The notes below the pieces were generated by a model. The model saw nothing but the letters and a program-made list of their open reading frames with translations. It was not told the DNA's origin and made no database searches. Source: Haliotis cracherodii (lineage: Eukaryota). Taken from it: a stretch of DNA of 64,000 nt. Each line of letters starts with the position of its first letter. The first letter of the stretch is position 1. The stretch covers positions 80,476,001 to 80,540,000 of the forward strand of contig NW_027266264.1 in assembly GCF_022045235.1 (NCBI RefSeq), given 5' to 3'. The position numbers were made by a program, and so were the translations under genes. This document shows positions 12,276-63,096 of this stretch, piece by piece.

Positions 12276-15200
12276 ATGTTCCCATCAAGTTCTCCTCGTA
12301 TGCGACACGGCATACCTCAAAATGAGCTGAACGCACATATACACAGAGGGGTGCAGGTTACTCACCATGGTTTTACTCATGAAAATGCACCTCACGTTCA
12401 GCACATTGGCCTTCCGCCACCACCGAATTTCTCACAGGTATTCCAGCATGGCCCCCAAAACATGACAGTCGGGAGACCGTCGATGGCTGGACCTGATGTC
12501 CCCTTTTTTGATGCACAACCACCAACTATCATGGGTCCACCCCATTCTGGGCAGCCTGTACATCAAGCTATGTTTCAAACGTCAAATCCGAACTTACAGT
12601 TTCCTAACACATCGGATTTAGGGCCAAGGATGCCACCGCCCTTTCCCAATGTGAGAGAATCGCCTCACGAGACATTAGATTTTAATCAACGAGCTGATAT
12701 GAATATACGAAGTGCAGCACCTCCAGGGTTTAATCAACCACCTTTCTTGATTGGAGAGAATGGCATACCTAAAAGTAACAGTTCAAACAGTAACTATCAT
12801 TCATTCCAACCACCACCAATGACTTATGGAAATGTCACCTCCTCAAATATGAGAGGTCCTGGTAACATGTCTGCAGGGATGATGCCTGTACATTCAGCAC
12901 AGCACAGAATGGATCCTATGGACATGAGGAACAATAAACATGACCATATGCCTGGTCACAATATAATGCAGTATCTAACAGATGATGAAGATAAATCTGA
13001 CTCTTACTATGACAAATATCAAAGAGAAAATGATCAGAATTGGGTACAGAATTGGTTAAAGAAACATGGGAAATTGAAAACAATGCCATTACATAAGAAA
13101 TCTTCGGAAATATCAACAGTGGAATACAAGGTACATAACCATGCATCCATATGGATTGTTTTTAGCACATACTTCATGTACTTAGCTGAAATGATATCAT
13201 TGATCTACTGTTCATAGAGACGATAAGTCCAACTTACTCTCAAGAAACACTTGCAAAATCCATCTTGATATCAACAGCAGTGTTTCATATTGCAGGAAAT
13301 ATAAATAGGATTACTTTCAAGATCAAACAATAGGATGTTTTATTTTGGGGATTGAAAACTTGATGCTTGAACATGTTTAACACATGCTGAAATTAGATAT
13401 CTTGGGGATTCTAAGGAAATGGACATTGATAGCAGAGCTCAAGATAAGCTGCGTATCTGCGTAAAATTTGCTTCAGAAATGCAGAAGTACGCAGTAAAAT
13501 AAAATCCAAGCTTATCAAATACGTAATAAACTTTACAGATACGCTAAAAAAATTAAACTTGTGCTTATCATCAAAATATTGTGAAGTAACCCTGCGTATT
13601 CGATTAGCAAATCAGCAACTTATTTTGAAATTATGTACGGACATTCCATCAACCTTGCCAAACTCCACGATTACAGTTACATCATGATCATTTGCCATCA
13701 CACTTTCTTGTGGAAGTATCGCGTTATTTTTGAGTCCTATAAAGCTCTCGAACCCACACAACACCAGTTTGCAGGGACTAGATCATGTAGATGAATATCG
13801 TTTTTAAATATTTAACTTAAATACCCACATGTGTAAAAACTAGTGGGTAACAGAAATTTGAATACCCAGACAGAATTACTGATACTCAATGATTTTAAAA
13901 TGCACCAAAAGCCAAAAGCTTATCTGGAGCTCTGTGATAGCAAATATGTTTTTATGTTCATCTCATAGAGTACCTCTGTCTCCCTTATTTGGTATCTAAA
14001 TACCCTAAGCGCGCAAAGAATAGCTAACATAATTCATGTCAAATTGATAATTTCATGTATAACTAGTTCCCAGATGTCCAGAAGGCATTCCATCAGAGCA
14101 TCCTCCTCTTGGCCAAACTGCACCATCAGTATCAATCTCTGGAGACGCTGACCAACACAGCTGACCCCCAGGTGTGGGAGTCTGAGAAGAATCTGACAGA
14201 GGAGTATAAGGTAAACCCGGAATAGTGCAATGTCATCATGGATATTCAAAACAATGATACTTCTTGACTTAGAGTAGTGCTAGTAGTGGGGACCTTGAAG
14301 ATCCAGGGTAGAATAGGTCTTCAACAACCCATGCTTGTTAAAAAAAGTTGACTATGCTTGTAGTTAAAGTGACTAACGGGATTTGGTGGTCAAGCTTGCT
14401 GACTTAGTTGATGCATGTCATCTTATCCCAATTGCATGGATCAATGTTCATTACGTCAATCACTGGATTGTATGGTTCAGTCTCGATTATTTAGAGACTG
14501 CCATCATAGCTGAAAATTTGGTTTTCCAGCTGCTTTTCCAGCTGCTTTTCCATTGTTTACAGATCTTACAATATATTGTCACAAACTTTATTGGACATTG
14601 TTGGAAGTAAGATGCAATGTCATGTTTTTTTCTCAGTTATTTTCTTTATTATCTTGACAAACAATTATAGTTTTGAAGAAAAAAAATTGTGTAAACTCCA
14701 AATAGGCATAAGAATATGAAGAAGAGGTCAAACTAAGCATGGTGTAAGTCAGCATGGTGAAGTGCAATGAAACTAATTTTCATGATGAAATAATTATCTG
14801 TGTTCTGTATACTAGAAATTTAGTTTACCCATGATGAATGATGGAACTCGATTCTGAAGCAATGAACCTATTGAAAGTCTTCTGAGCTGGATAATCAGCC
14901 TTTTTGGCATTCTGTGGCAGAATAGATCCCCTGTACCCCATTGTAACAGCAGATTATCACATGGATAAGTTGTAGCAATGTGTGACTTGGTTGATTCAAC
15001 TTGATTGTCCCTGTACTTCGATGCTGTCAGCCATCTGTTGCGTTAGCAGGGGCGACTTCCTGTGCAGAGTTGCGTCCCTTGGGCACTCCAGAAACCTATG
15101 ATTGTGGGTTCGAATCCTGGTTCGCCCCGATTATGTTTCAAGGTTTGTCAGCACCATACCCGTGCTCGTGGGTTTCACCGAAGTGGTAAACGTCTGTGAC

Positions 15201-18200
15201 CTGCATCACTTCGGGCTTTCCTCCCACATTAAGCTGACACGCCGTGATATAACTGGAATACTGTTAAAAGCAGCGTTAAACCCTACTCACTCACTCACTC
15301 ACTGTTGCGTTAGCCAGACTAACAGCTTGCAGTAAGAACAGGGCACTGCATTGTACTGTGTAGCTGGGATTTGCTTTCTTTCATCATAAGACAACTCATC
15401 CTTACCCTGTTTCATGTACTAAATCATGAGTAAATAGTAGGTATTGACTACTTCTGGATAATGAAGTTTATCCTTTTGAAATTGGAATGTCATAAAATGT
15501 GTAGATGCTATGATTTGTGTTTTACTCAGGACAAGTGCATGGATGTCTACAAGTATCTCAACAACGACGAAATGTTGGCAACTATCAAGTCAAAAACACA
15601 AGCAAGACGGAGAAAGAGGGTAGGTTCATAGCTTCATTTGATGAAATTGATGACACTTTGTCTACTAACTATTTAATGAACTGTGAACATGTTTCTTGTA
15701 TTCATTATTGTTCATCTTTGTATTCTCAAGTGATATTGATCATGTTGATAGCTGATCTTATTGATAATGCTATAATATTCTAGTGGAGACATCTTGTCAT
15801 GTTTTACCCTCATCATGCTCATAGTCACATAGTTAATGTACTGAAGAGTTATTCATTGGTTAAGACAATTTTGCGAAAATTATTTAAAGAAAGAATCTTT
15901 CATTGAGGATGCACTTCATGAAGTTTTGTCATGTTTACTAAGTAACATGTTGGGACATCTTGAAGCATTCACTGATTTATCATGTTTATGATTTTTTTTT
16001 CTTTCAGTAAGTGTCAACTTAACTGGCTTCAGTCTTGGTTGTGTTTCAGTATTGTTCTCTTGACTGAGACAACTTTTTGATCTAACCTACTGTATCCTTT
16101 ATGTTTGTATCCTTTATCATGTACCATGGATGTGCCGTGGACACTTGTATCTCAGCTCTCCATGTTGTACTGTTGGAAGGCTAAACCTTCCCAGGGGGCG
16201 AAATAGCTATGGCTAAACCTTTCTGGAGAAGGAACGTGCTAGATCTTCACTGCTCAAATTTATGATTTATCTTAGGGGGGAAAGGTTCATTCTAGGCCCA
16301 GAACTGGCCCATGATGAGATAGAACTGGCCCATGATGAGATAGAACTGGCCCATGATGAGATAGAACTGGCCCATGATGAGATAGAACTGGCTCATGATG
16401 AGATAGAACTGGCAGAGGTTGGAGTCAAGATAGGGGAAGATCTGGCCTTGGGTGACCCTTCCCCACCTCTATTCGAGACTATAACTACCCTGGGGAAGAA
16501 CTGGCCAGGGTGATGTTTCGTCCACTTACACCGGTACACAGTGGAATCTTTTTCATTTGGAAATGAAATTAGCGGTTTTCTAAACCCTCAAGCACTGGGA
16601 GTCTTTAGCACCTTACTGTTTTTGGTGTACATATTTTGTTCTCATTTGTTAAGCTTTGAAATATGTTAGCCCATTGGAATAAAATAAATAGGACTGAAAG
16701 TATTCACAGATCTATCTGTGATCGAATCTTGTTCCATAATTCACTTAGTTTAAGAAGTATCCTGAGGTCATCATGGTCATCCTATGTTATATTTTAGAGG
16801 TGTAACGATACGGCGATACATTAGCGTATCCCGATACAAGGCCTATGATACAAAACATAGATTTACAACCTGTATATCACAATACGAAAGATGCATTACG
16901 TCACAGTATATGTCGTAAAGCATGTGAATAACAAAAGATACTGCAGATTCTCTAGTATTTCTCAGTTGGCTATAAACAGCATAACATTCCTCATTTAGGT
17001 CCCCTCTAGTGTATTGCACCTATAGAATCGTGATTGACGGGATACATACATCGCAACCCCACCCAATTGCTAGACCTATATTACATATATCAGTACATGT
17101 TGCAGCACATATAACAAGAAGTTGGGCGGTCAGGTAACCTAGTTGTTAAAGCGTTCGCTCGTCACGCCGAAGACCCGGGTTCGATTCCCGACGTGTACAA
17201 TGTGTGAAGCCCATTTGTGGTGTCCCCGCCATGATATTGCTGGAATATTGCTAAAAGCAGCGTAAAACCATTCTCACTCACTTACTATAACAAGAAGTGA
17301 TATGACAATGAACTGTTCAGTGGTCTTGCCAGTGTTGTAGTTAGTATGACAGTCATTTGTGAGCCTAAGAACGGTTACAAGAAGTAGCTTCTTTCTCACT
17401 CTTACACACACACAATATTGATGTGTGTTGTAGACTAGTGTGCTTGACCCAGGATTATGTTGTCAATACCAAAACATTTTGGTGAACAACTCTGACTAGA
17501 GACAAACTAGTCATGGATCAACTTACGTCAGCTCACACTGACAACATTGACAGAAATATAATTAATTAACAAACACCTTAATTCAGTAGTCCTCAGAGTG
17601 TGGCTAGTCCTGCTTGAACAAATAAGAAATGTTTACATATTCTGTTTTATTCTAAATTGTAGCAATATTGAGAACTGTTTCAGAATTATAGCCATTACAG
17701 CTTTTGTTCAAATTTTATTTCCTATGGTCTACTGATGATGAAATAGGTTTTAATTTTTGTACTAGAACACGTTTTAGAATGTATGTAGTGTATGATCTCA
17801 GTAATCATATTGAGTAAGAATATTGACTTCACTGTATCAACAAGCTCAGCTGCATCTCACCCCTATTTGGGATAGTGTTCAGCATGTGCAACAGCAACAA
17901 ACAATAATGGATTATGGTTATGTGAATGCAACAATTGCCTTGTGGGTCAGGTCCAAGTGATCTATGTAGGCTTCATTGCTGTCTGGAGCTTGGTAATGAA
18001 TGGTCTAAAATCTTTAACGTCTCTGTATGGAGCTTGGTAATAGCCTGACATATACATCCCTGTATGGAGCTTTGTATGATCAAGACATGTACATCCCTTT
18101 ATGGAGCTTGGTAATAGCCTGACATATACATCCCTGTATGGAGCTTTGTATGATCAAGACATGTACATCCCTTTATGGAGCTTGGTAATAGCCTGACATA

Positions 18201-21200
18201 TACATCCCTGTATGGAGCTTTGTATGATGAAGACATGTACATCCCTGTATGGAGCTTGGTAATAGCCTGACATATGTACATCCCTGTATGGAGCTCAGTA
18301 ATAGCCTGACATATGAACGTCCCTGTATGGAGCTTTGTAAGATCAAGACATGTACATCCCTGTATGCCTGACATATGTACATCCCTGTTTGGAGCTTGGT
18401 AAGAGCCTGACATATGTACATCCCTGTATGGAGCTTGGTAATAGCCTGACGTATGTACATCCCTGTATGGAGCTTTGTATGATCAAGACATGTACATTCC
18501 TGTATGCCTGACTTATGTACATCCCTGTATGGAGCTTTGTATGATCAAGACATGTACATCCCTGTATGTCTGACACATGTACATCCCTGTATGGAGCTTG
18601 GTAATAGCCTGACATATGTACATCCCTGTATGGAGCTTTGTAAGATCAAGACATGTACATCCCTGTACGGAGCTCAGTAATAGCCTGACATATGTACATC
18701 CCTGTATGGAGCTCAGTAATAGCCTGACATATGAACGTTCCTGTATGGAGCTTTGTATGATCAAGACATGTACATCCCTGTATGGAGCTCAGTATAGCCT
18801 GACATATGAACGTTCCTGTATGGAGCTTTGTATGATCAAGACATGTACATCCCTGTATGCCTGACATATGTACATCCCTGTATGGAGCTTGGTAAGAGCC
18901 TGACATATGTACATCCCTGTATGGAATTTTGTAAGACCAGAACATGTACATCCCTGTATGGAGCTTTGTAAGATGAAGACATGTACATCCCTGTATGGAG
19001 CTTTGTATGATCAGAATATGTACATCCCTGTATGGAGCTTGGTAATAGCCTGACATATGTACATCTCTGTATGGAGCTTGGTAATAGCCTGACATATGTA
19101 CATCCCTGTATGGAGCTCAGTAATAGCCTGACATATGTACATCCCTGTATGGAGCTTGGTAATAGCCTGACATATGTACATCCCTGTATGGAGCTCGGTA
19201 ATAGCCTGACATATGTACATCCCTGTATGGAGCTTGGTAATAGCCTGACATATGTACATCCCTGTATGGAGCTTGGTAATAGCCTGACATACGTACATCC
19301 CTGTATGGAGCTTTGTAAGATCAGAACATGTACATCCCTGTATGGGTCGAATGTCGAAGCGCAATGGGCGCTTTGTGGATCAGGCTGTATTGAGACTGGT
19401 GTTACAGATGCGGGTAAAGAGACGCAAGAAGGAGGAGTATGAGATGAAGGTGGCAGCAGATGAAAAGCGAGACCAGCGTCATAAGCAGCTGGAGGAATGG
19501 AGGGAGAAGATGACACAGCAGGCTGAACAGGAGAAACAGGTGAAGACAATGATGGGGTTGTTGTAATCTGTAGATTTGGTGTGATACAATTTTCCTAATT
19601 TTATTTTGATACTGAACTGAACTCTGAATTGATATTGAACTTGAAAATATTGATTATTGTCAGCCAAATTTGCTGAGAGAGTGACGTCCAGGTTCCTCCT
19701 CAGTTACATCCTAGTCGACCCGTGAAGATCCAGGTTAGAATAGGTCTTCAGCATCCCATGACAGCCGTAAATGGCGACTATGCTTGACAGTAGAGGCGAC
19801 TAACGGGATCGGGTGGTCAGACTTGCTGACTTGATGGTTCATGTCATCGTATCCAAATTGCGTAGATCAAGGGTAGACCATCATACAGCTGGAATATTTC
19901 AGAAAGCGGTGTTAAACAACAAACAAACAAACATCCAGCTCCTCCCCAGTTACATCAAGGTCCTCCCCAGTTACATCCAGGTCCTCCCCAGTTGCATCCA
20001 GGTCCTCCCCAGTTGCATCCAGGTCCTCTCCAGTTACATCCAGGTCCTCATCGATTACATCCAGGTCCTCATTGGTTACATCCAGGTCCTCATTGGTTAC
20101 ATCCAGGTCCTCATCGATTACATCCAGGTCCTCATTGGTTACATCCAGGTCCTCATTGGTTACATCCAGGTCCTCATTGGTTACATCCAGGTCCTCATCG
20201 ATTACATCCAGGTCCTCATTGGTTACATCCAGGTCCTCATTGGTTACATCCAGGTCCTCATTGGTTACATCCAGGTCCTCATTGGTTACATCCAGGTCCT
20301 CATCGATTACATCCAGGTCCTCATTGGTTACATCCAGGTCCTCATTGGTTACATCCAGGTCCTCATCGATTACATCCAGGTCCTCCTCAAATACATCCAC
20401 AGTCACGTCAAATGATATCATGGATATTTTTCAGAAAGAAGAGTTGAAGAAGTCAGCTGATGCCACTCTGAGTTCTGTCAGGAAGAAGATCTCTGATGCC
20501 AAGAAGACACAGGACTTCTTGAAGGCCCTCCAGAAGCTGCGGAAAGTCAGGAGAGTTGCCGCCATAAACCAGGGTGAGTGTGAGGCACACGTAGGAGTCT
20601 TCACCTCTAGCCACAGGCCATTACCAGAGTTGAGATATATGTCATTTGCTTTAGTCATTTCATGAGTCCATATATTAGCACTACCAAATACCAAGAGAGA
20701 AATGTGCTGACAATCAAACTTTTTTCAAAGACTGCCCAAGGACACCATGACAACATTTAGGAACTTGATGTCATATGCAATGTAAACATTTTGGGAAGTC
20801 TGAGACTTGAGCCACGTGCCAGAAGTCGAAGTCTTTTCAAATTTCATGAGCTCAGCTTATGGCAACCAATATGTAATGTATAGAATTATTCTTGTTGTTA
20901 TCTTGACAATCTGAGATGGTAAAACACAATGTAATCTTGACAGTGTGATGTGATACATTCATGGTCATCTTGTGTTATTGACAGTGTGATGTGGTACATT
21001 CATGGTCATCTTGTGTTATTGACAGTGTGATATGGTACATACATCGTCATCTTGTGTTTTTGACAGTGTGATGTGATACATTCATCGTCATCTTGTGTTA
21101 TTGACAGTGTGATATGGTACATACATCGTCATCTTGTGTTATTGACAGTGTGATGTGGTACATTTATCGTCATCTTGTGTTATTGACAGTGTGATATGGT

Positions 21201-24200
21201 ACATACATTGTCGTCTTGTGTTATCTGCAGGCCGCTATGCCTCGGATGTATATGACAACAACTTTGAGAAGAAGATGAAGCTGCTGACCTCACTGATAGA
21301 GACGCAGCAGACAGTGTACGAGAGTGAGGAGAGGACGCTCAAGGTGCTGTCTGGTTTCGTAACATTTACGTAGATCGTAGTAATGTTTCAACAGTGAAAG
21401 TGTCTGACGTAGTCCCCTCCGACATCATTGTCCAAATGTACATTGCCACGGATAAGTTCAATGACTGATATGTTGTAGGTGATGCTGGATACAGTGGAGG
21501 AGGAGACGATGGAGCGAGACAAGGAGATTAAACGCTTGAAGGAACTTGCCAAGGAGAAGCGAGACAAGAAACTTGCTATGGAAAAACTGTTTGGGAAAAA
21601 AGGCAAGTTGTTGTGGTCTGATAATATGTTGATCATTGTTAAAGGTCAGCCCAAGTTAGGTACAGGATATTTCTTACTTTTATTCAGTAATTTGCTTTTA
21701 TGTTAATAATATGTATTCAGTTCAGTTAAGGATTAAACTGATTCTTACATGAAAATATTGACTGGGTATATCTGTAGATCATAAAAATGATTTCAGTTCA
21801 TTCGAAATGAGTTCTAGCTATCAGATTTATATGCTATATTGACTGCCTGGGTCCTGTGAAGATTCCAGATTAGAATAGGTCTTCAGCAACCCATGCTTGT
21901 CGTAAGAGGCGACTAACGGGATCGGGTGGTCAGACTCGCCGACTTAGTTGATGCATGTCATCGTATCCCGACTGCCTGGATTGATGCTTATGATGTCAAT
22001 CACTGGATTGTCTGTTCCAGACTTGATTATTTACAGACCACTGTCATGTAGCTGAAATATTACTGAGTGGGGCGTTATGCAACAAACAAACTGCCTGGTG
22101 TGCAGTATGGTAACCCACGTCTCTTCACTGACATCTAAGATTCATCTCTATTGATTGCCACGTTTAACCCTCTTGGTGCCACGGGACCATATATGGTCCC
22201 TCACTTTTCACACCCGCATAGTGCCAGGGGACCATATATGGTCCCGAGAAAATGCCCTTTTTAAACTGTGAATTTTGATATTTAACACTCAGTGCGCAAA
22301 GTCAAAACTATAACCATCATCACCCCAATCATCTTAGCTTTAACATCGTATAACTCATACTTTATACAATGCTACGGATTGCGAAATATGGCGAGATTGG
22401 TAAAGTGGCTACCGCTCTTCTCGGCCTTTTTCTGCCATGTTTGAACAGCAAGCGAATGACGGCGAATTTTGATTATGCACCCATGTCACATACACGTAAA
22501 TATTTTCAGACAAAATCCTTGTTCATAAGAAAAAATATGACCTGAGTGATCAGAAAGACATATTTTTCCCAACTGTATACTTATTCACGTAAATACAATT
22601 CTGTTCACTCCTTATGAACAAGTTTATTTACACGTTTTGTATATTTTTATTGACTATCGGTAATGGCCGGTACACATGAGAAAACGACAGTGTATATTTC
22701 CATTACATTTATGACGTACATTGAATGAATTTATAACCATCATCACCCTAATCATCTCAGCTTCAATATCGTGTAACTCATATTTTATGCAGTGCTACGG
22801 ATTGCGAAATATGGCGAGATTAGTAATGTGGTTACTGCGCTTCTCGATCTTTTTCTGCCATGTTTGAACACCAAGCGAATGAAGGCAATGTTTATTATGC
22901 ACCCATGTCACATACACGTAACTATTATTATATCAGACAGCCAATTTGAAAAAGAAATCTGATCGGACTGATCAGAAAGATTTACTTGTCCCCACTGTAC
23001 AGTTATTGGCGTAAGAGTACTAACGTTTAGTCGGCCGCGGAAGTTTTTTGTTCAAGTATTGCATATGTTTATCGACTGTGTGTCATGGCGATTTAGCACG
23101 GCGATGCATACCAACCGACAGTGCAGATTGTCTTTTTGTTTATGATGCTGAATTACAGAAAATATTCAAATCAAAGATATGGAAATATAGCTATAATCGT
23201 TAATATTAAGTTGGTATTGTGTATATTTATGGGCAGGAGGTTCATGATCAAAACCTAAACATTGAATGGCCAAGCCCGAAGTGATCGACAGGGCACGTTC
23301 GCCTCATATCTGTGCCGCGATTTCTTGTTTACGGGTTGTCCTTCATACTTGCCCGTTCAGACAAATAACTGCTACTTTTTTCATATGAAATGACTAAGAG
23401 TCATGTGTGATTGCTCAAACTACCTGACCGTGTGAGTGACTTGCCCTAACTGTTTCACATTTTGTCGCAAATGGAGATTTCAGAAGTGTGGCCACGACAT
23501 CTAACGTGAGTCGACGCCATATTGTAAACAAAATGTGTCAAGGTCGGTTCCACAAGTGGTAGCTCGGGCCCCGTTTCTGTCGATAGTACACGCGATACAA
23601 ACATAATTCAACTACTGAAAACATCAACATAACTTCTACAATGATGACATCAATACCTTTTTGTATTTGGATTAACCGCTTATGGATACGATGTGCTTTT
23701 AAGTTCAATTTCGATTTGTTTTTCCTTTCATTGAAACTGTGATAATGGCGGTGTGATTGGTTTGCTGAAATAGTATTTTCCATGAGTCTAATGTACATGG
23801 TACATGTTGTGATTGTAGAAGATAATTGATAACCAATTGTGTATGCATATATATCATCAAATACACATTACTAATCTCTTCAGAAAATGGAATATATTAT
23901 AGCTCGTTTTCAAACATTCTGCTATGGATATTAGATCAAAAAATGATATTAGATTTACAAATTATTTATGCACACTGTACTCGCGATTAACGTATGATAA
24001 TCTATTGCAAGTCTTCAACTCTTATTTGATATGTCATCTGAAATGTCAGCAATGAGTACAATTAATTTTATTTCGTTACAATCTGCAATTTTATTCAAAC
24101 AGGCTAATAGACGGTCGGTGATTTCCCGCCGCTGTGAATTTGTCGTCTGGACAGGTGCGCGTGATTTGACCTCGCGTGTTGTGACGTGGATGACGTCACA

Positions 24201-27200
24201 TGAAACAGCTGATCTAATGTTGTGGTAGTATAATGGCAACACGTGGTTTCATTTTCCAAATAACAATATTCTCTTTGACTGAACTAGAAAGCATATCTAG
24301 TACATCACGATTGGAAAATGTCTACGAGTGAATGAGACCGCTTATCATTTGACTAACGGTGTTAGAATATTTGGCGCATTTTTCTAATTTTGGTATGTTG
24401 ACATGTGCTTTTCATATCTGTTTGAAGGCTTGATATTCCAAAAAAGTAATATGCATTTAGTTGAGTACAGCGAGAAAGCTGTCAAAATGCATCCAATATT
24501 AAACCACCTAGATTTTTGATATTTTAGCTTCATCTATTGGAATCTCGAATGGTTCAATTTATAACATAAACAGTAAAAGTAATTAGATCTTCTCACAATA
24601 TATAGATAATCAATTTCTGAAAGACAAAAAGTTTTTAGTGTAAATGTGACTTCGTTTTGATGTTTTATATAGTTATATGTATGTCTTTTTTCACTCTGCA
24701 TTATCTAAATTACCAAATACTTCGACCAGTGACATATAGTAGTAATTATATTCTACTTTGTTTTTTTATCCTAGGTATGAAATAGATTTTCTTTTTAAAT
24801 AAACATTTGTCTAAGAGCAAAATCAATACATTCTTGTGGGTTTTTTTCACCATTTTAATTTGTATATTTTCCCTCCAAGCTGTTGTTTAGCTAGGCCAAA
24901 ATTAAGAAAAAAAGGAAAGACATAATAAACCATTTTAAGTAAGATTTTGCTGGTTAAATTTTCGGAGTTCAATACCAAGTATATATTTTTCCTTTTATGA
25001 CAAAAAATTCCATTACTTTCATTTATCTACGATCATTATCTATTTCAAACTTTTCCTTCAGTAGAATATGGGATGGAATGGGAAACTAGTGGAAATAAAC
25101 TATCACGTATGTCCTTTAATGTACATGTACATACCTAGCTATAGGTGTAAATACACTTCTAAAGTCGTATTTATAAATCAAATGAATAAATGAAAGAAAA
25201 AGTGGTATTTCATGGACTGGCCATACAAGTATATTTTGAGCAAAGGTCTAAGTTAGGCAGCCAAGTGCGAAATACGAGCTTATACGAGGATGTATGTTTT
25301 CTGGTGTTCATAGTGAAACAATGACATATGGCGCGGCGGCGCCCGAGTTGCGAGTGATCGAAAATAGGTTTGTTGAATAGATTTGCTGCCCATGAAAACG
25401 TTTCAACAAATTTGATTGAATCTACATGTACTTACTCTTGGGTGGTATTACGTAAGTATAATCTTGTTAATTATTAAGAAATAACAATGATGCCCGATAT
25501 TGAGCGATGTCAATTTGAGTATTGTCAGGGCTGTTTAGCGATCTTTCACATTTTGTCCTTTGAAAATGTACGATGTCAATTACCCGGAAGTTGTTTTTAT
25601 CACTAATAAAAGAGCACGGTCATTGAAACATACATGGACGTAACCGGGATTTCTTCACGATATACATTCCAAACTGTCATTCGTTTTGTGACATAATCTT
25701 TGAAACAGTCTGCGTATGAATTAATCACGACCACTTCCATCAATTTTGTTTTGACGTCAAAAACATGCACAATTTCATCGGGGTTTTTTATCGGTAAATA
25801 TAACTCACGGAAAATTCTCAGTGAATGTGTACTTCAACATAAATATGATATGTCTATCACTGTTAGGACATGTACTTGCCAATGATATGAATTATTGGTC
25901 ACTTAGATTTCAAACAAGGGCGCTTACTTGACTTTGCTTGCCGTATTCGGGAGCGTCCATATTACGATTAATGTGGAAAAGTAGGAAACTTATAATACCA
26001 GCACATTTATCAATGGCTGGGCAGTGCATAGATCTTTGGAATTTTGTGATTTTAGATACTGTTGGAAAGACAATCAACTCGAGTTGCATGTTATACAATT
26101 TGGTTACATTGTGTGAAGAAATAAAGACGTTGCAACACTTTTGATACAATGTGTGCGTTTTTGTAACCGCGACGTCAGCACAGTGCGGCACTAAGCGGTT
26201 TGCAGGCTGACTGACGTCCAGGCACCATGAGGGTTAAGAAGATGGCTGTTCCTAAGTATTTGACAGAACGAGTTCTTTGTATTTGTTCGTATCTTGAATG
26301 ACCTATTTGTATTTCAGGTGCTGTGTCAGAAGACACAGAGTTATTTCCCTTCTATAGCTACTACACTCAGGCTGAACACAGCATAGAAGCACTGGTCCAG
26401 ATCAGGTCAGTACACTGCTCAAGGGGTTTGGTTTCAGCAGACTGGTCTGGTACAGATCAGGGCCCACTTGCACAAAGCGATCTTAGCGCTACGACTATTG
26501 TAAGCCTATGTTAAAGTATGGGAGTTACGATCATCTTAGCGCTAAGATCGCTTTGTGCAAGTGGACCCTGGTCAGTACACTGCTCCAGGGGTTTGGTTTC
26601 AGCAGAATGGTCTGGTGCAGATAAGGTCAGTACACTGCTGAAGGGGTTTGGTTTCAGCAGACTGGTCTGGTACAGATCAGGTCAGTACACTGCTCCAGGG
26701 GTTTGGTTTCAGCAGACTGGTCTGGTGCAGATAAGGTCAGTACACAGCTGAAGGGGTTTGGTTTCAGCAGACTGGTCTGGTGCAGATCAGGTCAGTACAC
26801 TGCTCCAGGGGTTTGGTTTCAGCAGACTGGTCTGGTACAGATCAGGTCAGTACACTGCTCCAGGGGTTTGGTTTCAGCAGAATGGTCTGGTGCAGATAAG
26901 GTCAGTACACTGCTGAAGGGGTTTGGTTTCAGCAGACTGGTCTGGTACAGATCAGGTCAGTACACTGCTGAAGGGGTTTGGTTTCAGCAGACTGGTCTGG
27001 TGCAGATGAGGTCAGTACATGTTCCAGGGGTTTGGTTTCAGCAGAATGGTCTGATCCCAGATTCATCTGTGTTACGGGCTTTGGTCTGACACACTGGGAA
27101 GTAACTGAAAGATACTACTCAAAAGAAGTTAAAGAACACCCGATTCTTTCATATTATTACACTTTGTCATGGTATTACAAGCTATAACTGGTCATGAAAA

Positions 27201-28090
27201 CATTGGATGGTCTTTGACTTCAATTGAGTAGTACATTTTGAACTGTGGTTTTAATCCAAACTAACTTACTGACTCATGCATTATAAACATATGCATGCAG
27301 TTTCGTTAGATCAACGTAGAGACACTTTAAACATTTGCTCAAAAGAAAATCTAAAGAATATGTACCATATTCACTGTAATAAGCGCCCTGCGTCAATACG
27401 TACCCCCTGACCAACACGTACCCCCTGACCAACTTCGATCCCATCTGTAAGTAATATTTATAAGTGTGCCCGCACGTTAAATATTTCACCTCATCCCACC
27501 TAGTATTATAAAAAATGTTTTAGTTTTATCACCGTTTGAAAGCGGTATTAAACCCAACTCACCCACTCACTCACTTACTTGTCGGGGGCACGGGTGGCCT
27601 AATCATCTAAGGCGCTGCGATTCGCTGTGCAGAGTTGCATTCCTTGAGCACGCCAGATACCAATGATTGTGGGTTCCAATCCCGGTTCGTCCTGATCATG
27701 TTTCTAGGTTTGTCAGCACCATACCCGTGGGTTTCACCGAAGTGGTAAACGTCTGAGACCTGCATCACTTCGGGCTTTCCTCCCACATTAAGCTGACAGG
27801 CCATGATATAACTCGAGTACTGTTAAAAGCGACGTTAAACCCAACTCACTCACTTACTCACTTACTTGTCAGTTTGTAAAACTGTTATGTTTCGTCATGA
27901 TACTACTGTCAGAGGCGAAGAATGAATGTAACGTTGGTTTGTGGTACAACTGGGCTTGTTGTGTTGCAGACATGAGTGGGACCTCCATCTGGTACCACCC
28001 AACATCCCTGCTGGGAGTCGTATCCCGGATGGCTGGATCATGCCTGCTGAACCCTCATCGGAGGCCTGGGCGTCCGCCTTGAAGGATTAA
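12276..28090 (+). CDS. PDCD7: Programmed cell death protein 7 / U11 snRNP 59K protein, 9 exons, 601 aa
   Basis: Exons 12276-13130, 14067-14210, 15530-15619, 19408-19539, 20435-20573, 21231-21343, 21479-21602, 26318-26405, 27970-28090 (1806 nt, in frame). Pro-rich N-terminus, then ELKKSADATLSSVRKK, LQKLRKVR, YESEERTLKVML, KLFG, YYTQAEHSIEALVQIRHEWD, IPDGWIMP, WASALK, matching the PDCD7 C-terminal domain. Exon 2 acceptor is the least certain boundary. Confidence 0.92.
13433..13934. mobile_element. MITE / non-autonomous DNA transposon (hAT-like CAG termini)
   Basis: 18-bp TIR CAGAGCTC(A/C)AGATAAGCT, flanked by direct TGATAG duplication. Confidence 0.7.
14291..14520 (+). mobile_element. SINE-like family B copy
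   Basis: GAAGATCCAGGGTAGAATAGGTCTTC...CACTGGATTG core shared with about 12 copies in the window. Confidence 0.75.
15049..15303 (+). mobile_element. tRNA-derived SINE family C (V-domain-like), 5' truncated
   Basis: B box GGTTCGAATCC, GGCTTTCCTCCCAC motif, (ACTC)n tail, TSD TGTTGCGTTAGC. Confidence 0.8.
16092..16115 (+). promoter_or_regulatory. Candidate USSE (U11 snRNP-binding splicing enhancer): tandem U12-type 5' splice-site motifs in PDCD7 intron 3
   Basis: GTATCCTTT atgttt GTATCCTTT. Upstream cryptic acceptor T9-CTTTCAG ends at 16007 and is followed by TAA in frame with exon 3. No U12 branch point seen before the exon 4 acceptor. Confidence 0.7.
16301..16412. repeat. 21-bp tandem repeat, 5 copies
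   Basis: GAACTGGCCCATGATGAGATA. Confidence 0.9.
17124..17286 (+). mobile_element. tRNA(Asp)-like SINE family A
   Basis: A/B boxes, GTC anticodon-like loop, shared tail GCTGGAATATTGCTAAAAG, TSD ATAACAAGAAGT. Confidence 0.85.
18020..19345. repeat. 39-bp minisatellite with two interspersed variants, PDCD7 intron 3
   Basis: TCCCTGTATGGAGCTTGGTAATAGCCTGACATATGTACA and a ...TTTGTATGATCAAGACATG variant. Confidence 0.95.
19717..19932 (+). mobile_element. SINE-like family B copy
   Basis: GACCCGTGAAGATCC...TAACGGGATCGGGTGGTCAG...TTAAACAACAAACAAAC. Confidence 0.75.
19933..20400. repeat. 21-bp minisatellite upstream of PDCD7 exon 5
   Basis: TACATCCAGGTCCTCATTGGT, about 22 copies. Confidence 0.95.
20932..21230 (+). 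repeat. 41-bp minisatellite running into the PDCD7 exon 6 acceptor
   Basis: Unit TTGACAGTGTGATGTGATACATTCATGGTCATCTTGTGTTA x7; the last unit ends TCTTGTGTTATCTGCAG|exon. Confidence 0.9.
21851..22090 (+). mobile_element. SINE-like family B copy
   Basis: Near full-length match to other copies. Confidence 0.8.
22168..26233. mobile_element. Non-autonomous piggyBac-like DNA transposon (4066 bp) in PDCD7 intron 7
   Basis: TTAA on both flanks; TIR CCCTC(T/A)TGGTGCC; subterminal IR CCGCATAGTGCC / GGCACTAAGCGG; no transposase ORF. Confidence 0.8.
26406..27055 (+). repeat. 55-bp minisatellite derived from the PDCD7 exon 8 donor junction (~10 units)
   Basis: Unit GTCAGTACACTGCTC...CTGGTACAGATCAG regenerates AG|GTCAGT. 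Confidence 0.9.
26461..26570. mobile_element. ~110-bp MITE; degenerate relatives at ~40475-40570 and ~52785-52883
   Basis: Long TIR GG(C/T)CCACTTGCACAAAGCGATCTTAGCGCT, with CAG/CTG at the ends. Confidence 0.8.
27584..27865 (+). mobile_element. tRNA-derived SINE family C, full length
   Basis: Head GGGGGCACGGGTGGCCTAATCATCTAAGGCG; flanking duplication ACTTACTTGTC. Confidence 0.8.
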
Positions 28091-51477: not shown

Positions 51478-51876
51478 AGGAGCACGTTTAAGGGACAAGT
51501 AAACCAAGATTCCACACCATCGCTTGTCCTGACATGTCTCAGACGACAAACCTTCTTGTCGTAAAACAAAGAAACGTATTTACATGGAAAAGCTGACTTC
51601 CGGTTTCACGAACCATTTCAAAGACATTTGGTGTAAACAATCGTCTGCGATCGCCGGTTTGTGATTTCTAGGGTCTGTGTAGGACTAGGGGTTAAATACA
51701 GGTCGATGTGGGGAGGTTCCCAAGCGACCCCCTGAGGTGGACTCACCTACCCCGCAAAGTCACTTCTAAAAGTACGTGATCCTGTAAAAAAGTGACACGC
51801 CGGAAAATCTATAAATGCCTGTTCCCTTATATTCCTCAGTCGCTTTCGTTCTCAAAACGTCTCTCAACTCAACGCA
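51478..51876 (+). promoter_or_regulatory. Promoter of chitin-binding gene copy 1, alignable with copy 2 promoter (60853-61243)
   Basis: Shared colinear blocks GGAGCACGTTTAAGGG, CATCGCTTGTCCTGACATGTC, CTTCCGGTTTCACGA, TGGTGTAAACA, GGGTTAAATACAGG, TCACCTACCC, CTATAAA. Confidence 0.65.
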
Positions 51877-54800
51877 ATGGGCTCAAAGGTCCACATCGTC
51901 ATATTCGTGTTTGGACTTGCCGCCATTTTGTTTTTGAATGCGGTCGATTCCGTCGATTTTCTCGACGACAATTTCGGAGCAGACCCCGGATGTAAAGACC
52001 CATGGACAACGGAGTGGACCAGAGATAACCAAGATTGCAGTAAAGTTCATTTCTGTGTACAGGGCAAGAAATACTGGAGTATAAACTGCAACGACAGTCG
52101 AGTGTGGTCCAATATCGGCCATGCATGCGTGGAGCCAATGTCCCAGTGGGATGACTGCAATCAAGTGATGACCACCCCCGCCATCAGTGAGTACACCAGA
52201 AGTTTGGTTTGCACTGTCATATATTTCAGCATTATAAGAAATATGACGTCATCAAGTGCCATGACGTCAAAGATATTTATATGACTTCGGTCAAAAAGGA
52301 GGTCTCACTAAACGGATTCATCTCCACTTTCTACTGAAATAAAGTGATTGAGTATGGTTTTACGCCGCTTTTAGCAATATTCCAGCAATATCACGACGGG
52401 GGACACCAGAAATGGGCTTCGCACATTGTACCCATATCGGGATCGAACCCGGGTCTTCGGCGTGACGAGCGAACACTTTAACCACTAGGCTACCCGATCG
52501 CCCCCTGAAATAAAGACAATGGCAATACATTCTCACTATGCAAAACTACAGGCACCAGTATTACACTGGGAAGCTCGCCAAGACTTTTTATGTTACATTC
52601 TATGGAACATTTAGCCATTGCAATGCGGCATATTACCCCAAATATCACACATTTGAGTTCTCAATCAAATTTCACGTTGGGTGATAATGCAAAAGGTCAC
52701 TGGGACTTACAGATTATTTCCCACCTAGTGAATTTATGATTGTACTAATGGCACTTCTTCATTCGGGTGTGATCGACCACAGAGTTCCACCAAGCGATCT
52801 TAGCTTTGAGACTATGGTAACTCCCATACTTTAACATAAACTTACGACAATCGTAGCTAAGATCACATTTGGCACGGGGCCCAGGATATGTGTCCCACGT
52901 GTATCAAAGAAAAGGAAAAATATGAATTTTGCTTGAAGTTGATTGGCTAATCCACTCCTGTGTTCATTTGTTTTTGAAAAAGCCATTACGACGTGACGTC
53001 ATATCAGTTGATTGTAAATAACATTAATATGACGTCATCCATTGTTCTTGATATCACGTGACGTCATTATTACAATAGCGGATTGAGCTGATGTCTCTAA
53101 ATATGATGCGGAAACCTACACTTTTCTTACAGTTTCTTTATATTGCATGATTTGCTCGCAATTCCGTATTACTGATAATATTTCCAAAATATATTAATTC
53201 ACGATCTCGTCATGATATTCCTCGTAGTTTGTCAGTTATTCCCACTTTAACATACAATAGTACGTGAGGAAGTACAATATTTAACACTGGAATCGATATC
53301 CTGCATCCCGCGACATTGATCCCCGTGAATAGCTGGAAAATTGTTGATGCGGCATAAAACACTATTCATTCATTCTAAAGAGATTGCTTGAATGGAATCT
53401 ACATTGACTAATATAGAACTGTGGTCTTCAAAAATATATGCACACTAATATCAAATAATTATTACAATTGATCTTTTATACATAAAAGCTACTATTACTA
53501 CCGCGCTGTGCCAACAGTTGGTGAGCTAGTGAGATCTATTTGTTTTGATGAAAAATGTAAATCGTCCAGAATATACTCAAACACTCAAAAATATTTATAA
53601 ACATACACTTCATTAGTATGTCCAACATGCCATTGTTTTGTTTTGTTTACAGAAGAAAGTCTTTTGAAACCAATCTTGTATAAACATAGAATTGCATTTT
53701 CCAGATTTAGATGTTCATCACATGTGTTAACTATTGAAACAGGAAAATATATTAAAATCCCGTTGGAATGCAGACTGTGAGAATGTGTAATTTACAGTTT
53801 ATAGAAGACAGGTACCACTTTGTTCTAATATTCCCATTTTATCAAAGTGTACGTTGTACATATCTAGCTCCATTATTATACCAATTCTAAATATTTGTAA
53901 GTTTAATGAATTGATGTCATCTCTTAATATCAATGTATTAATGTCTTAACAGCTTTATTTGTCACTTTGAGAAATCATAACACATGCGACATAAACAACT
54001 GAACACTATTTCTGTACAGGTACTACATGTATCCACACATATGTGTACGATAGACACGTGGTCTTTCAGTATATTTGTATATGTACTACCCACACATATG
54101 TGTACGATAGACACGTGGTCTTTCAGTATGTTTGTATATGTACTACCCACACATATGTGTACGATAGACACGTGGTCTTTCAGTATGTTTGTATATGTAC
54201 TACCCACACATATGTGTACGATAGACACGTGGTCTTTCAGTATATTTGTATATGTACTACCCACACATATGTGTACGATAGACACGTGGTCTTTCAGTAT
54301 GTTTGTATATGTACTACCCACACATATGTGTACGATAGACACGTGGTCTTTCAGTATGTTTGTATATGTACTATCCACACATATGTGTACGATAGACACG
54401 TGGTCTTTCAGTATGTTTGTATATGTACTACCCACACATATGTGTACGATAGACACGTGGTCTTTCAGTATGTTTGTATATGTACTACCCACACATATGT
54501 GTACGATAGACACGTGGTCTTTCAGTATGTTTGTATATGTACTACCCACACATATGTGTACGATAGACACGTGGTCTTTCAGTATGTTTGTATATGTACT
54601 ATCCACACATATGTGTACGATAGACACGTGGTCTTTCAGTATGTTTGTACATGTACTACCCACACATATGTGTACGATAGACACGTGGTCTTTCAGGATC
54701 TTTGTACATGTACTACCCACACATATGTGTACGATAGACACGTGGTCTTTCAGTATGTTTGTATATGTACTATCCACACATATGTGTACGATAGACACGT

Positions 54801-57800
54801 GGTCTTTCAGTATGTTTGTACATGTACTACCCACACATATGTGTACGATAGACACGTGGTCTTTCAGTATGTCTGTACTTGTACTATCCACACATATGTG
54901 TACGATAGACACGTGGTCTTTCAGTATGTCTGTACTTGTACTTTCCACACATATGTGTACGATAGACACGTGGTCTTTCAGTATTTCTGTACAGGTACTA
55001 TCTACACATATGTGTACGATAGACACGTGGTCTTTCAGTATTTCTGTACATGTACTATCCACACATATTTGTACGATAGGCACGTGGTCTTTCAGTATGT
55101 CTGTACAGGTACTACCCACACATATGTGTACGATAGACACGTGGTCTTTCAGTATGTTTGTATATGTACTACCCACACATATGTGTACGATAGACACGTG
55201 GTCTTTCAGTATGTTTGTATATGTACTATCCACACATATGTGTACGATAGACACGTGGTCTTTCAGTATGTCTGTACATGTACTACCCACACATATGTGT
55301 ACGATAGACACGTGGTCTTTCTGCAATAAGGTTAAAATTTCACATTTTGATTTGCATAGAATCACTAGACAGGACATTGTCGGCAGTTAATTTGAATTAG
55401 CTTTTTAATTAAAGATTTTTTGTGATTTTGCCCTTCGTTTGAAGCCATCGCTGACATTATGTTCAAGCCAACACGAATTTGCTCCGTTTCACATGTTCAG
55501 AAGAGAGAGGTATAAATCATTGCGACGCAGCGACGTGAACGGCTCACTTCGACATTTAGTGTTCTTACAGGTGTTCTGCAAACTTGGCTTAAACTACAAA
55601 TAGGTAACGCGTATGCAAACAGCTGTTAGTGTTCATATGTTGGCCCTGAGATCTATTAAACGATTCTCTATTTGTATTTTAATACAAATTTAACATTCAT
55701 ATTAGATAAATCACAAACAACTCTCGTTCTTCATAGCCTCAGTTGTTTGATCTTCTGACGCTTGTAGTTGCCTCGCTCACTTTAAAATATCAAGCGAACC
55801 AATAAACACTGAACACTGAATAGTTGAGCAGTCGTCACTTAGTTATAATTTCGCCTCGGTCATATTGTAACAAAAAGCAGCGAAATTCAACTTACAGCAA
55901 TATTCCAGGAAAAAAGTAAAGTGAGGTTTTATCTCAGTAATGTACGGTTTACCAACCCTTCGACATGGTGAACACGGATTCTAGCGCACAGCCGATTAAG
56001 TGACCTGTGGGTGTAATCTATGACGAGTTCTGTAACGTGTTCTATGGAGTGATCTGTGACTGTGTTCTATGACGTGTTTGATGACTGTTTTATGACGTGT
56101 CCTATGACGTGTTCTGTGTGTTTTATGACGTGACCTATGACGTGTTCTGTGTGTTTTATGACGTGACCTATGAAGTGTTTTATTGCCGTTTTATGACGTG
56201 TCCTATGATGTGTTTTATTATGTGTACTATTATGTGTTTTATGACGTGACCTGTCGCGTGTTCTGTGTGTTTTATGACGTGACCTATGACGTGTTCTGTG
56301 TTTTTATGACGTGACCTATGAAGTGTTTTATGGCCGTTTTATGACGTGTCCTATGATGTGTTCTATTATGTGTTTTATGACGTGACCTATGACGTGTTCT
56401 GTGTGTTTTTTGTCGTGTTCTGTGGTGTGTTTTCTGACTGTTTTATGACGTGTCCTATGATGTTTTATCATGTGTTCTATGATGTGTTTTATGACGTGAT
56501 CTATGACATGTTCTCTGATGTGTTATATGACATGTTCTATGATGTTTTTTATGGCGTGATCTGTGACATGTTCAATAAGGTGTTATATAAAGTGATCTGT
56601 GAGTGTTTTGTGATGTGTTTTGTGACGTGTTTTATTGCGTGCTCTATGATGTGTTCTATGATGTGTTCTTGTCATGATGCAGTGATCTATCTCTTCCCCA
56701 GATGACGAACGGTGCGTCCTCCCCAGTGGAATGAACCCTGACCCCGACAACTGTGCCCAGTTCCTGGCCTGCACCAACCGGACAGTGGTGGCCACGATGC
56801 AGTGTCCAGAGAACACGCTCTTCTCCACCAAGAACAACACGTGCGAACTCAGTTTCCTCGTGGCTGACGAGTGTCGTACGAGACTCATTCCTGACCACGT
56901 TGTTGTTAGTAAGTACACACACACACATGCACGTTCACACACACACACACATGTGCAGCATAAAGAGGTTTGTCTCAAGTCATTTAAACAACACAAAGCT
57001 TCCTTGGGTTTTGTGATTTCATTTTACGTTGCAACAAGAGATTGATCATTTGTTTTAGCAATCTCCCAAGTCCTCCTTTTATTTACCTTATGTTTTCTTC
57101 TGAGTTAGGTGATTATGAACGCAGGAGAAGGAAGCTTATTAAATCTAGAATTTCAAATCCGATCCTTGGACATTTTTAAAAATTAAATAAAAAGGTAGTG
57201 TTTAAGACACGATTCACTCTTTGCAGGCAATGGAGCTAATTTATACACGAATCAAATAATAATCGCTGTTGTGAAAAAAATTAACAAATATACCCTAGAA
57301 ATCAAATAGAGATGTTGTTTGTCTGCAAACTGTAGTTTCAGAATTTAAGCTAAGATTTCATTCCACGAGAAATCCTACACAAGCCTGAAGGCCTCTACTA
57401 GGTATTACACGGAAACATGTATGTCAATGCTAGTTATCATACCACCAGACATGGAGGTATTGCTGTCTTGTGTATGTTTCTTGAAGGTGTAATTAAGTTT
57501 CATTGATGTCAACCATGGCAAACTATGTATACGGTCTTTTAAACTTCAGATCACATATATTCATAAGAAACAATCGCTCTTTCTGTAACGTCAACCCCTT
57601 GCAAGACACCGATCTAGTATTAAGTGCAAGAGTAAAACAAAATATAACTTAATTGATTCAGAATTTTAGTTAAATATGTAGCATTCGAGTCTAAGTTTGA
57701 AATCAACTTTTTAATTCGTTCTTAACTTAATCTTAATGCATACAAATATCGTAGTCCAATTCAAGCTGCTATATTTGCACAGTCGTCCGCTGTTTACCGT

Positions 57801-59920: not shown

Positions 59921-61243
59921 GACCCGTGAAGATACGAGTTAGAATAGGTCTTCAGCAACCCAAGCTTGTCGTAAGAGGCGACTGACGGGATCGGGTGGTC
60001 TTGGTTGATGCATGTCATCATAATTGCGTAGATCAATACTCATGATATCAATCACTGGATTGTCTGGTCCAGACTCGATTATTTACAGTCCGACGTCATA
60101 TAGCTTGAATACTGCTGAGTTCAAACAAACCTCAAGGGTATATTGTCACCTTAATACACTTTCATACCACTTTTCTAAATACCCAAACTGGTCGCAATCA
60201 GTCAATCAATATATATGTATATATATCAGTATACATATATACTGAACATGTTCTTTGTCAGCACCTTACATGCGGCGTCACACAACTCACTCACTCTCTT
60301 TGTTAGCGACTTCATCGTCAACACCCACTGTGCGTCAAGTTTCAAGGTCGTTCTTTATATTCCTCTATCTCAGACTTACAATGAACCAATGTTAGGGTTC
60401 GATGGCTATTTAGCAAATAATGGCAATACCTTTGACATATACGGAAAGTGTGCCCCTCAATTCAATAGAATCTTTAGCTAAAATGTGACAGGTTGAAACG
60501 ACGAGATAGCGATTAACTTCACTTACATTTAGTTTTTCACGTGGCACTTCTTGCTGATCCACGCATTAAACATGTCATTGATCGATAAATGAATTATTTC
60601 CATGGCAGAGTCATGCGAATGACCTTGACCGTTACAAAAATGAGACCTTGGCCGACACGACCTTCTTCCTATGTTCACCTTTCTTCAATTCATTTCGTGT
60701 CTATGCTGCCAAGTGCTTGTACATCAAATAGGATTATTATTGTTCGGACGACTGTTGAGAGGATGACTGCCTGTTACACGATTAGGACCAACCTCGTGCT
60801 GAAGGCAATGCAGCCGTCAACCTTGACCACGGATCACGGTGTTTCGCCTGGAGGAGCACGTTTAAGGGGCAACAACTCTGTATCATCGCTTGTCCTGACA
60901 TGTCCCAGACGACAAACCTTGTCGTAAAACAAAGAATCGTATTTACATGGACAATTTGGCTTCCGGTTTCACGACAAATTACAAAGAAAGTTGGTGTAAA
61001 CAGTCGTCTGCGATCGTTGGTTTGTGGGGATAAGGTCTGTTTAGGACATAGGGTTAAATACAGGAGGTCCCCAGAGATCCCTCCTTGTGGATTCACCTAC
61101 CCAGCAAACATGACAAATCAGTTCCCGACGTACGTCTTTGGAGTCAACCTGTAAAAAGGTGACACGTTAGAACATCTATAAAGGCCTGTCCCCTCATATA
61201 CCTCGTTGGATTCCACTGCTCATACTTCTCTCAACTCAACGCA

Positions 61244-62821
61244 ATGGGCTCGAAGGTGCATATTATCATATTCGTGTTTGGACTTGCCGCCATTTTGTTT
61301 TTGAATGCAGTCGATTCCATCGATTTTAGTGACGAAAATTTCGGAGCAGACCCCGGATGTAAAGACCCATGGACAACGGAATGGACTAGAGATAACCAAG
61401 ATTGCAGTAAAGTTCATTTCTGTGTACAGGGCAAGAAATACTGGACTATAAACTGCAACGACAGTCGAGTGTGGTCCAATATCGGCCATGCATGCGTGGA
61501 GCCAATGACCCAGTGGGATGACTGCAATCAAGTGATGACCACCCCCGCCATCAGTGAGTACACCAGTAGTTCCATGTATTTAACCATGATTTATTAAAAC
61601 ATGTTTTAACATGGATGATATGAAACAAAATCTAGGACAGTTGTGTGACTGGTGTTGTCGGGTTAATAAGGTCATAACGTGTCTATTCACATGGTTAGCA
61701 TTGTGTCATAAAATAATATTTACAATTTGATAAATATTTTACACCCATTTTGTATTAGTTAGTCCAAGGTACAAGGATATCACTGCCGTTAATATCGTAA
61801 ACATACATACAACATACACTAATAAAAATAAGTTAAGGATCAGCGATTCCTTCATATTACTACAGGGAATCGGTCATGCCACAACAGATTGACTATATAG
61901 TAATATGAAAGAATCGGGTGGTCCTTAACTTTTTCCCCAGTTGTATACATGGACATAAGTTTTGCTGTTACAATTTATTGTTCTTCTAGGTGTGGAATGA
62001 GTTCAACAAAGGTTAAGACTGTTATTAAAGTATCAGAATAAGAATTCCAGTAATAAAATATGCAACAAAATGTAATATTCGTTACGATTCGTTTTGCATA
62101 CTTATAAACAGGCGTTTGGGAAACAAAATATTCATGCGATTTAATAATCGTGGGAAGATATGTTGAATCATTTCCTGCTGGAATCGTTATTAGGTGTACT
62201 CCCGGGATACTCAAAGACGCTAAACATGCCGGCAACCTAATGTTCAAAACAAGGGATAACAAAACATTTTGAAAAACTCATCCGTTTACACATATAACTC
62301 CTAATAGTAAATGAAACCAAAACAACTTTGGTCGCTGAACGAATCTGGCAGCTATCAAGAAAAACAACAATAATCATTTACATGCACATTCCAGGAAGCA
62401 GGTTAGGTTTTATGACGTGTTCTATGAAGTGATTTGTGACTGTGTCCTGTGATGTGTTTAATGACGTGTTTTATGGAGTGTTTTATGACGTGATTTATGA
62501 CGTGTTCTTTGAAGTGATTTGTGACTGTGTTTTATGACGTGTTCTATGAAGTGATTTGTGACTGTGTTCTATGATGTGTTCTTGTCATGATGCAGTGATC
62601 TATCTCTTCCCTAGATGACGAGCGGTGCGTCCTCCCCAGTGGAATGAACCCTGACCCCGACAACTGTGCCCAGTTCCTGGCCTGTACCAACCGGACAGTG
62701 GTGGCCACGATGCAGTGTCCAGAGAACACGCTCTTCTCCACCAAGAACAACACGTGCGATTTGAGTTTCCTCGTGGCTGCTGAGTGTCGTACGAGACTCA
62801 TCCCAGAACACGTCGTTGTTA
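61244..62821 (+). CDS. Secreted peritrophin-A/CBM14 chitin-binding protein, tandem paralogue (copy 2), exons 1-2; exon 3 presumably beyond the window
   Basis: Exons 61244-61553 and 62615-62821 have the same lengths and phases as copy 1 and are near-identical to it. TATA box near 61177. Confidence 0.86.
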
Positions 62822-63096
62822 GTAAGTACACAAACATGCAGCCCCGTGAAGATCCGGGCTAGGGCTGTCTGACTCGCTGATTTGGTGGAAGCTTTTAATT
62901 GTTTCCCAATTGTGTGGATCGATGCTCATGATGTCAATCACTGGATTGTCTGGTTCAGACTCGATTATTTCCAGAACGCCGTCATAAAGCTGAAATATTG
63001 CTGAGAGTTGCGAGAGCCGGAAGAATTTCGTTTTCATTTTGTCTACATGTATATACACCATAGCACATTATTTCTCACGCTCATGACATAAATTGA

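Follow-up and report, generated by a model that had tools for sequence, protein, structure and literature searches.

A candidate USSE-like U11 snRNP switch in intron 3 of the abalone PDCD7 (U11-59K) gene

USSEs are tandem U12-type 5' splice-site motifs that activate an upstream U2-type acceptor (PMC5473595, PMC8329584, PMC3584512, PMC6865273). The distance from acceptor to tandem is constrained (PMC8329584). In SNRNP48 (U11-48K), the tandem sits in a U2-type intron of a U11 snRNP gene, behind a U2 acceptor that leads to a premature stop (PMC5473595, PMC8329584, PMC3584512); the stretch from acceptor to tandem is conserved, and a U2 donor right at the acceptor delimits a mini-exon. In RNPC3 (U11/U12-65K), the tandem also activates an upstream U2 acceptor and yields an unproductive transcript, but it acts in the 3' UTR and through nuclear retention (PMC5473595). 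A different class of intronic acceptor is the ratchet point of recursive splicing. Its use regenerates a strong U2 donor for a second step to the next exon, and its AG|GT arrangement restores the reading frame (PMC8605326). Two reviews, from 2019 and 2021, give USSEs as known just in SNRNP48 and RNPC3 (PMC6865273, PMC8329584), and passages of PMC11874965 name no PDCD7 switch. No description of a USSE-like element in PDCD7 was found in the literature, with most subscription papers and supplements lying outside the search.

Intron 3 of the abalone PDCD7 gene contains an element that resembles these systems, and a USSE-like switch in a third gene, with functional U11 feedback on PDCD7, is the probable reading. 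As in SNRNP48, the tandem lies in a U2-type intron of a U11 snRNP gene, behind a U2 acceptor with a premature stop; the stretch between acceptor and tandem is conserved among close relatives, and a U2 donor stands right at the acceptor. The PDCD7 element differs in that acceptor and donor overlap, which gives a predicted exon length of -1 instead of a mini-exon, and in its spacing of 84 nt. As in RNPC3, the tandem would turn an upstream U2 acceptor towards an unproductive transcript; the PDCD7 element is in the coding region, however, and not in the 3' UTR. The acceptor, which ends at position 16007, also resembles a ratchet point in that its use would regenerate a strong U2 donor for a second step to the next exon. 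In PDCD7 the G of that donor would come from the upstream exon, so that one coding base is lost and the message is poisoned, whereas ratchet points keep the frame.

Coordinates are positions in the window, the 64-kb stretch of the abalone genome (1.18 Gb) that was analysed. By homology, the gene at 12276-28090 (+ strand) is PDCD7, encoding the U11/U12 di-snRNP protein U11-59K. Its coding span comprises nine exons and 601 aa and translates without an internal stop. Proteins of relatives that match exon 5 (Haliotis) are named PDCD7-like or carry Pfam PF16021, and one Haliotis relative found by exon 5 matches human U11-59K in PDB (E 2.8e-42). Exons 1-3 together make up 363 codons and end in phase 0. 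Exon 3 (15530-15619, +) ends in AAG AGG, the last G of which would complete the regenerated donor. Exon 4 (19408-19539, +) has a weak acceptor (9/18 pyrimidines); in the -1 frame it would reach TAA after three codons, giving a 365-aa product. Exons 2, 3 and 4 are joined at the modelled sites by spliced contigs, which have loose ends, in all three RNA runs. The Pfam PDCD7 domain covers residues 287-598, so a stop at 363 falls inside the domain and would remove about three quarters of it; the first-pass annotation had placed this truncation before the conserved domain.

The tandem consists of two copies of GTATCCTTT on the + strand, at 16092-16100 and 16107-16115. They are complementary to the U11 snRNA 5' end AAAAGGG, have a period of 15 nt and are part of an exact 12-nt direct repeat. 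There are no other + strand copies of GTATCCTTT in the 64 kb and none on the - strand. The poison acceptor, T9-CTTTCAG, occupies 15992-16007 (+), with T9 at 15992-16000 and AG at 16006-16007. It is the most pyrimidine-rich acceptor of the gene (15/18, against 9-13/18 for the constitutive PDCD7 acceptors). A predicted U2 branch point, CTGAT (15972-15976, +), is found 32 nt before it, and motif 1 follows 84 nt after it. An in-frame TAA comes directly behind the acceptor, at 16008-16010; exon 3 joined to 16008 would thus have a stop as its next codon and encode 363 aa. Two secondary acceptors, at 16032 and 16049, accompanied by a TTAAC branch-like motif at 16019 (16019-16049, +), are 59 and 42 nt from motif 1 and lead to 15 and 5 sense codons, respectively, before a stop. 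A predicted hairpin at 16031-16085 (-11.5 kcal/mol) covers the 16049 acceptor.

No U12 branch motif occurs in the 40 nt before the acceptors of exons 4-9, and CCTTAAC is absent from the + strand of the gene. The two motifs thus lack the mark of a true U12-type intron donor, a U12 branch point near the downstream 3' splice site. RNA contigs pass through both motifs without a joint there, a type of record that cannot show absence of donor use. The first-pass annotation had described the perfect pair 15 nt apart, the strong acceptor 84 nt upstream, the immediate TAA after 363 aa, stops within 16 and 6 codons of the weaker acceptors and the missing U12 branch point before exon 4; the sequence agrees with it on all of these. 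Spacing in USSEs is 25-50 nt from acceptor to tandem. The acceptor at 16007 falls outside this range (84 nt), 16032 is at 59 nt and 16049 is inside it (42 nt). At the level of sequence, the element has every property of a USSE except possibly the spacing.

The earlier reading of the element is partly supported. It overlooked a perfect U2 donor. GTAAGT at 16007-16012 (+) shares its G with the AG of the acceptor, and the in-frame stop TAA (16008-16010) lies within it. In the window, 6 of the 1872 YAG sites are followed by TAAGT. The acceptor reads CAG|TAAGT and exon 3 ends in AAG AGG, so a joint between exon 3 and 16008 would restore AG|GTAAGT, a consensus donor lying one base within exon 3. A second splice from this donor to exon 4 is predicted to lose one G and to give R-C-G-stop, a product of 365 aa with its stop 586 nt before the last junction. 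By our reasoning, no single splicing step that uses canonical alternative GT or AG sites could produce a one-base shift. Standard junction callers are likely to miss the minus-one step, since the net intron has non-canonical ends. If true, an off-by-one recursive site of this kind would be a novel means of poisoning a message without any exon sequence. The site was rejected as a ratchet point proper, because AG and GT share one G and it is thus not zero-length or frame-neutral; it may work like one. A cassette with CA|GTAAGT as its donor and an acceptor at 15832 was also rejected, as that acceptor region is altered in relatives.

Strict tandems are rare in this genome. The pattern GTATCCTTT-N4-9-GTATCCTTT has three matches in 1.18 Gb (four for the reversed control), a count that depends on the 4-9 spacer. 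One of the other two is antisense to a collagen-like Gly-X-Y exon and one is in a minisatellite; the PDCD7 tandem lies in sense orientation within a U11 snRNP gene. About 2e-5 strict tandems are expected by chance per gene of this size. Looser patterns have 229 matches genome-wide (control 175) and 361 (control 180; those listed are mostly minisatellites). For the loosest patterns, the chance expectation is about 0.002 per gene of this length and 0.03-0.045 over the minor-spliceosome genes (an assumed set of 15, at 20 kb each). A dispersed repeat holding a pair with an 11-nt spacer accounts for 4 of the 30 loose-pattern loci examined. These loci (L017, L018, L020 and L029, on G000 C2 and C5) contain GTATCCTTT twice, and dispersed repeats with such pairs could be seeds of USSE-like elements. 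A protein pattern run over metagenome contigs gave 427 matches with no relative among them. In a scan for the tandem pattern, 79 of the 120 stretches listed were screened by tblastn, and none of the 79 matched PDCD7, SNRNP48 or RNPC3.

Sequencing runs from close relatives show how the element is conserved. Seventeen runs from six organisms were found, none of them on record as RNA. Four were compared, namely X9 (organism C, DNA), X12 (C), X14 (D) and X17 (F); three of these hold spliced contigs. Among the changes listed for organisms C, D and F, with 31 substitution and 10 indel entries standing outside those listed, no substitution or indel falls within 15972-16133 (+). This block runs from the branch-point motif CTGAT, its 5' edge, to 18 nt past motif 2, and the nearest listed change is at 15971. 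Over the 109 nt from 16007 to 16115, X17 has 0 substitutions, compared with 20 in 397 adjacent intron positions (Fisher P 0.007); the interval for this test was fixed before the comparison. The X17 piece from 16007 to 16175 has one other letter in all, at 16134, while 12 of its 15 inserted letters are without location; organisms C and D have an insertion at 16142-16146. In X9, 0 listed substitutions fall in 126 nt of the block, against 20-24 in 601 nt (P 0.02-0.01). The list for X9 holds 21 of its 25 substitutions and every one of its 58 gap letters, the latter all outside the block; if the four remaining substitutions all fell inside, P would be 0.42 and the test would fail. Organisms C, D and F share most of their differences from the abalone reference genome, so the conservation amounts to one effective comparison at about 5% divergence. 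A lack of conservation had been named as a result that would refute the switch; the element is unchanged in these close relatives. Structured RNA or ncRNA was rejected as the reason for the conservation, given a folding z of -0.44 and no Rfam match over the element; the two sub-threshold Rfam matches in intron 3 are both outside it.

The abalone genome has three U11 snRNA genes, which start with AAAAGGG and are complementary to UCCUUU. By complementarity, the motifs can pair with this genome's own U11 snRNA. The three genes are near-identical and stand in tandem (G000:C34:72773349-72777125). It had also been asked whether SNRNP48 and RNPC3 keep their own USSEs; neither has one in this genome. 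The SNRNP48 region (C45, minus strand, about 44.712-44.719 Mb, without N) contains no perfect RTATCCTTT and no motif pair. RNPC3 (U11/U12-65K) is single-copy with an intronless coding region (G000:C12:2418133-2419515, L051; region without N), and the 50 kb around the gene contain no consensus pair, just weak ones at a distance from the gene body. Two weak RTATCY pairs lie 4.6 kb and 14 kb downstream of the RNPC3 stop and were dismissed as candidate USSEs. The intronless single-copy RNPC3 may result from retroposition or intron loss, and the intronless coding region could explain the loss of its USSE. A tentative and rather doubtful extension is that the ancient U11 circuit moved in abalones, perhaps in molluscs widely: SNRNP48 and RNPC3 would have lost it, and PDCD7 would now carry it and have its message killed through a minus-one-nucleotide exon. 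A third USSE host, in a genome where the classic two are without the element, would show that the subunit under control can be exchanged while homeostasis of the minor spliceosome persists.

The proposed switch would operate as follows. Plentiful U11/U12 di-snRNP would bind the two motifs, neither of which would serve as a donor, and the bound di-snRNP would recruit U2AF to the acceptor at 16007 (or at 16049). In human cells U2AF is bound by PDCD7 itself (PMC8034651), which would make the loop directly autoregulatory; if true, the U2AF-contacting subunit becomes a direct target of its own bridge. Exon 3 joined to 16008 would be a dead message, with two possible fates. The long 3' part of intron 3 may be kept as an extended exon, leading to nuclear retention or NMD. 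Alternatively, the rebuilt AG|GTAAGT may be re-spliced to exon 4, with one G lost and a stop three codons on; this stop would be upstream of five junctions and NMD is predicted. U1 on the overlapping GTAAGT may mask the acceptor before splicing, which is possibly why the strong 16007 site is normally skipped.

Protein records of other molluscs show alternative forms at the same junction. R363|M364 of the abalone protein corresponds to R|D in Patella and to R|E in both oysters and Sepia. Of 210 proteins, 193 were scored, and those with an intron-derived leader that ends in Q before exon 4 include nine from oysters and one from the Sepia cluster; the exon 3/4 junction is thus in phase 0 in other molluscs too. 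These assembly proteins from oysters and Sepia run on to a complete C-terminus, and their contigs measure 1-3 kb; we infer from them spliced RNAs in which the 3' part of intron 3 is retained. The arrangement resembles the extended exon that the USSE directs in the long isoform of 48K (PMC5473595, S8 legend).

Patella vulgata RefSeq isoform X3 (XP_055956441.1), an automatic annotation known here from the protein alone, has 377 aa in common with X1 and then T-D-stop at the exon 3/4 junction. The tail T-D is one of just eight peptides possible from a -1 reading of exon 4, and among junction shifts of 0-5 nt solely a 1-nt loss yields it. None of 260 control intronic YAG sites gives a peptide compatible with the Patella form. 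The truncated Patella isoform (R-T-D-stop) thus fits the -1 frame at the level of the peptide. Sepia isoforms diverge at the exon 3/4 junction into Y-V-W, either as a 31-aa in-frame cassette or with a stop after 34 aa. Their Y-V start (TAY GTN) fits the acceptor G+TAxGT design if the Sepia Arg codon ends in G. Within the first 105 nt, the Sepia peptide is compatible with a single RTATCYTT, at nt 48, and with none at the abalone offsets; the tandem is thus shown for abalones only. Intron retention starting at the normal donor was rejected as the source of the Patella and Sepia isoforms, because the junction is in phase 0 and retention would start with Val. H. rubra X5 and Patella X4 begin at a Met in exon 4. 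Going by these records, none of which shows the tandem, there is alternative processing at PDCD7 intron 3 in three mollusc lineages.

The same isoforms bear on an alternative in which 16007 is a real and old unproductive or recursive site under U1 or SR proteins, and the tandem is an incidental 12-nt duplication within the block. This accounts for the limpet and cuttlefish isoforms, which back events at the junction and show no tandem, for a spacing of 84 nt that exceeds the 25-50 nt of USSEs and for the exact 12-nt direct repeat in which the motifs lie. It is unlikely, however, as chance would place a perfect U12 pair in a U11 gene just 2e-5 to 2e-3 times per gene, and the unchanged block reaches just past motif 2, ending at 16133. 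The USSE-like reading is favoured by how rare the tandem is and where it lies, by its conservation in relatives, by the complementary U11 snRNA of the genome and by the mollusc isoforms truncated at the same junction.

Abalone transcripts provide no direct record of the poison junction. The first-pass annotation had named joints from exon 3 (15619) to 16008, 16032 or 16049 as a check; none is present in the contigs of the three RNA runs, which drop rare forms, and of the two joints listed neither leads into the element. The element and the intron downstream are covered by contigs of all three RNA runs. One contig of X12 runs unspliced across 16007. One of X17 begins exactly at 16007; this is the start expected from a branch in the assembly graph, as 16007 is the first base common to the spliced and unspliced paths. 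The cover of the element and the X17 start are a weak hint of acceptor use. RNA cover of 15620-16006 is thin and was left out of the evidence. No truncated abalone isoform of 30-370 aa was found among 24 candidates from the cluster representatives searched.

The missing junction is also what would be seen if the element had no function at all, that is, if a chance local duplication lies beside a cryptic acceptor and its conservation is luck over a short distance. Local duplications are indeed abundant (the loose patterns have 229-361 matches, many in minisatellites), and there is one independent species comparison. We regard this as quite improbable, since coincidence would have to account at once for the rarity of the tandem, the conservation (P ~0.007), the donor overlap (6/1872) and the same-junction isoforms of two further mollusc lineages. 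Least probable of all is that U11 binds the tandem but the output is retention of intron 3 or nuclear detention in competition with the weak exon 4 acceptor, or that a motif is a true U12 donor: the unspliced X12 contig, RNA contigs over the downstream intron, oyster and Sepia proteins that begin in the 3' end of the intron and the nuclear retention of RNA by USSE-bound U11 (PMC5473595) agree with this, but no downstream exon acceptor has a U12 branch motif before it, and the conserved block begins with the branch-point motif that serves the upstream acceptor, for which such an output has no need.

Several other features of PDCD7 and its surroundings were observed. A 1.3-kb minisatellite at 18040-19330 stops ~70 nt short of the weak acceptor of exon 4, which competes with the poison acceptor. 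The donor of intron 7 is of the GC type (AAG|GCAAGT, 21603-21608). The donor region of exon 8 has expanded into a minisatellite (26406-27089), and the annotated isoforms P0001 and P0167 read through it to give a form of 676-678 aa without the conserved C-terminal exon. An upstream ORF of 16 codons (12202-12252) has its end 24 nt upstream of the PDCD7 start codon, and the beginning of this ORF resembles a YY1-type promoter motif. On the strand opposite PDCD7, the ORF at 5293-5688 (-) resembles a prenyltransferase alpha-subunit repeat protein (PTAR1-like). Duplicated exons at 51796-52284, 56686-57045, 61163-61597 and 62544-62925 presumably encode a secreted cysteine-rich, chitin-binding-like protein.
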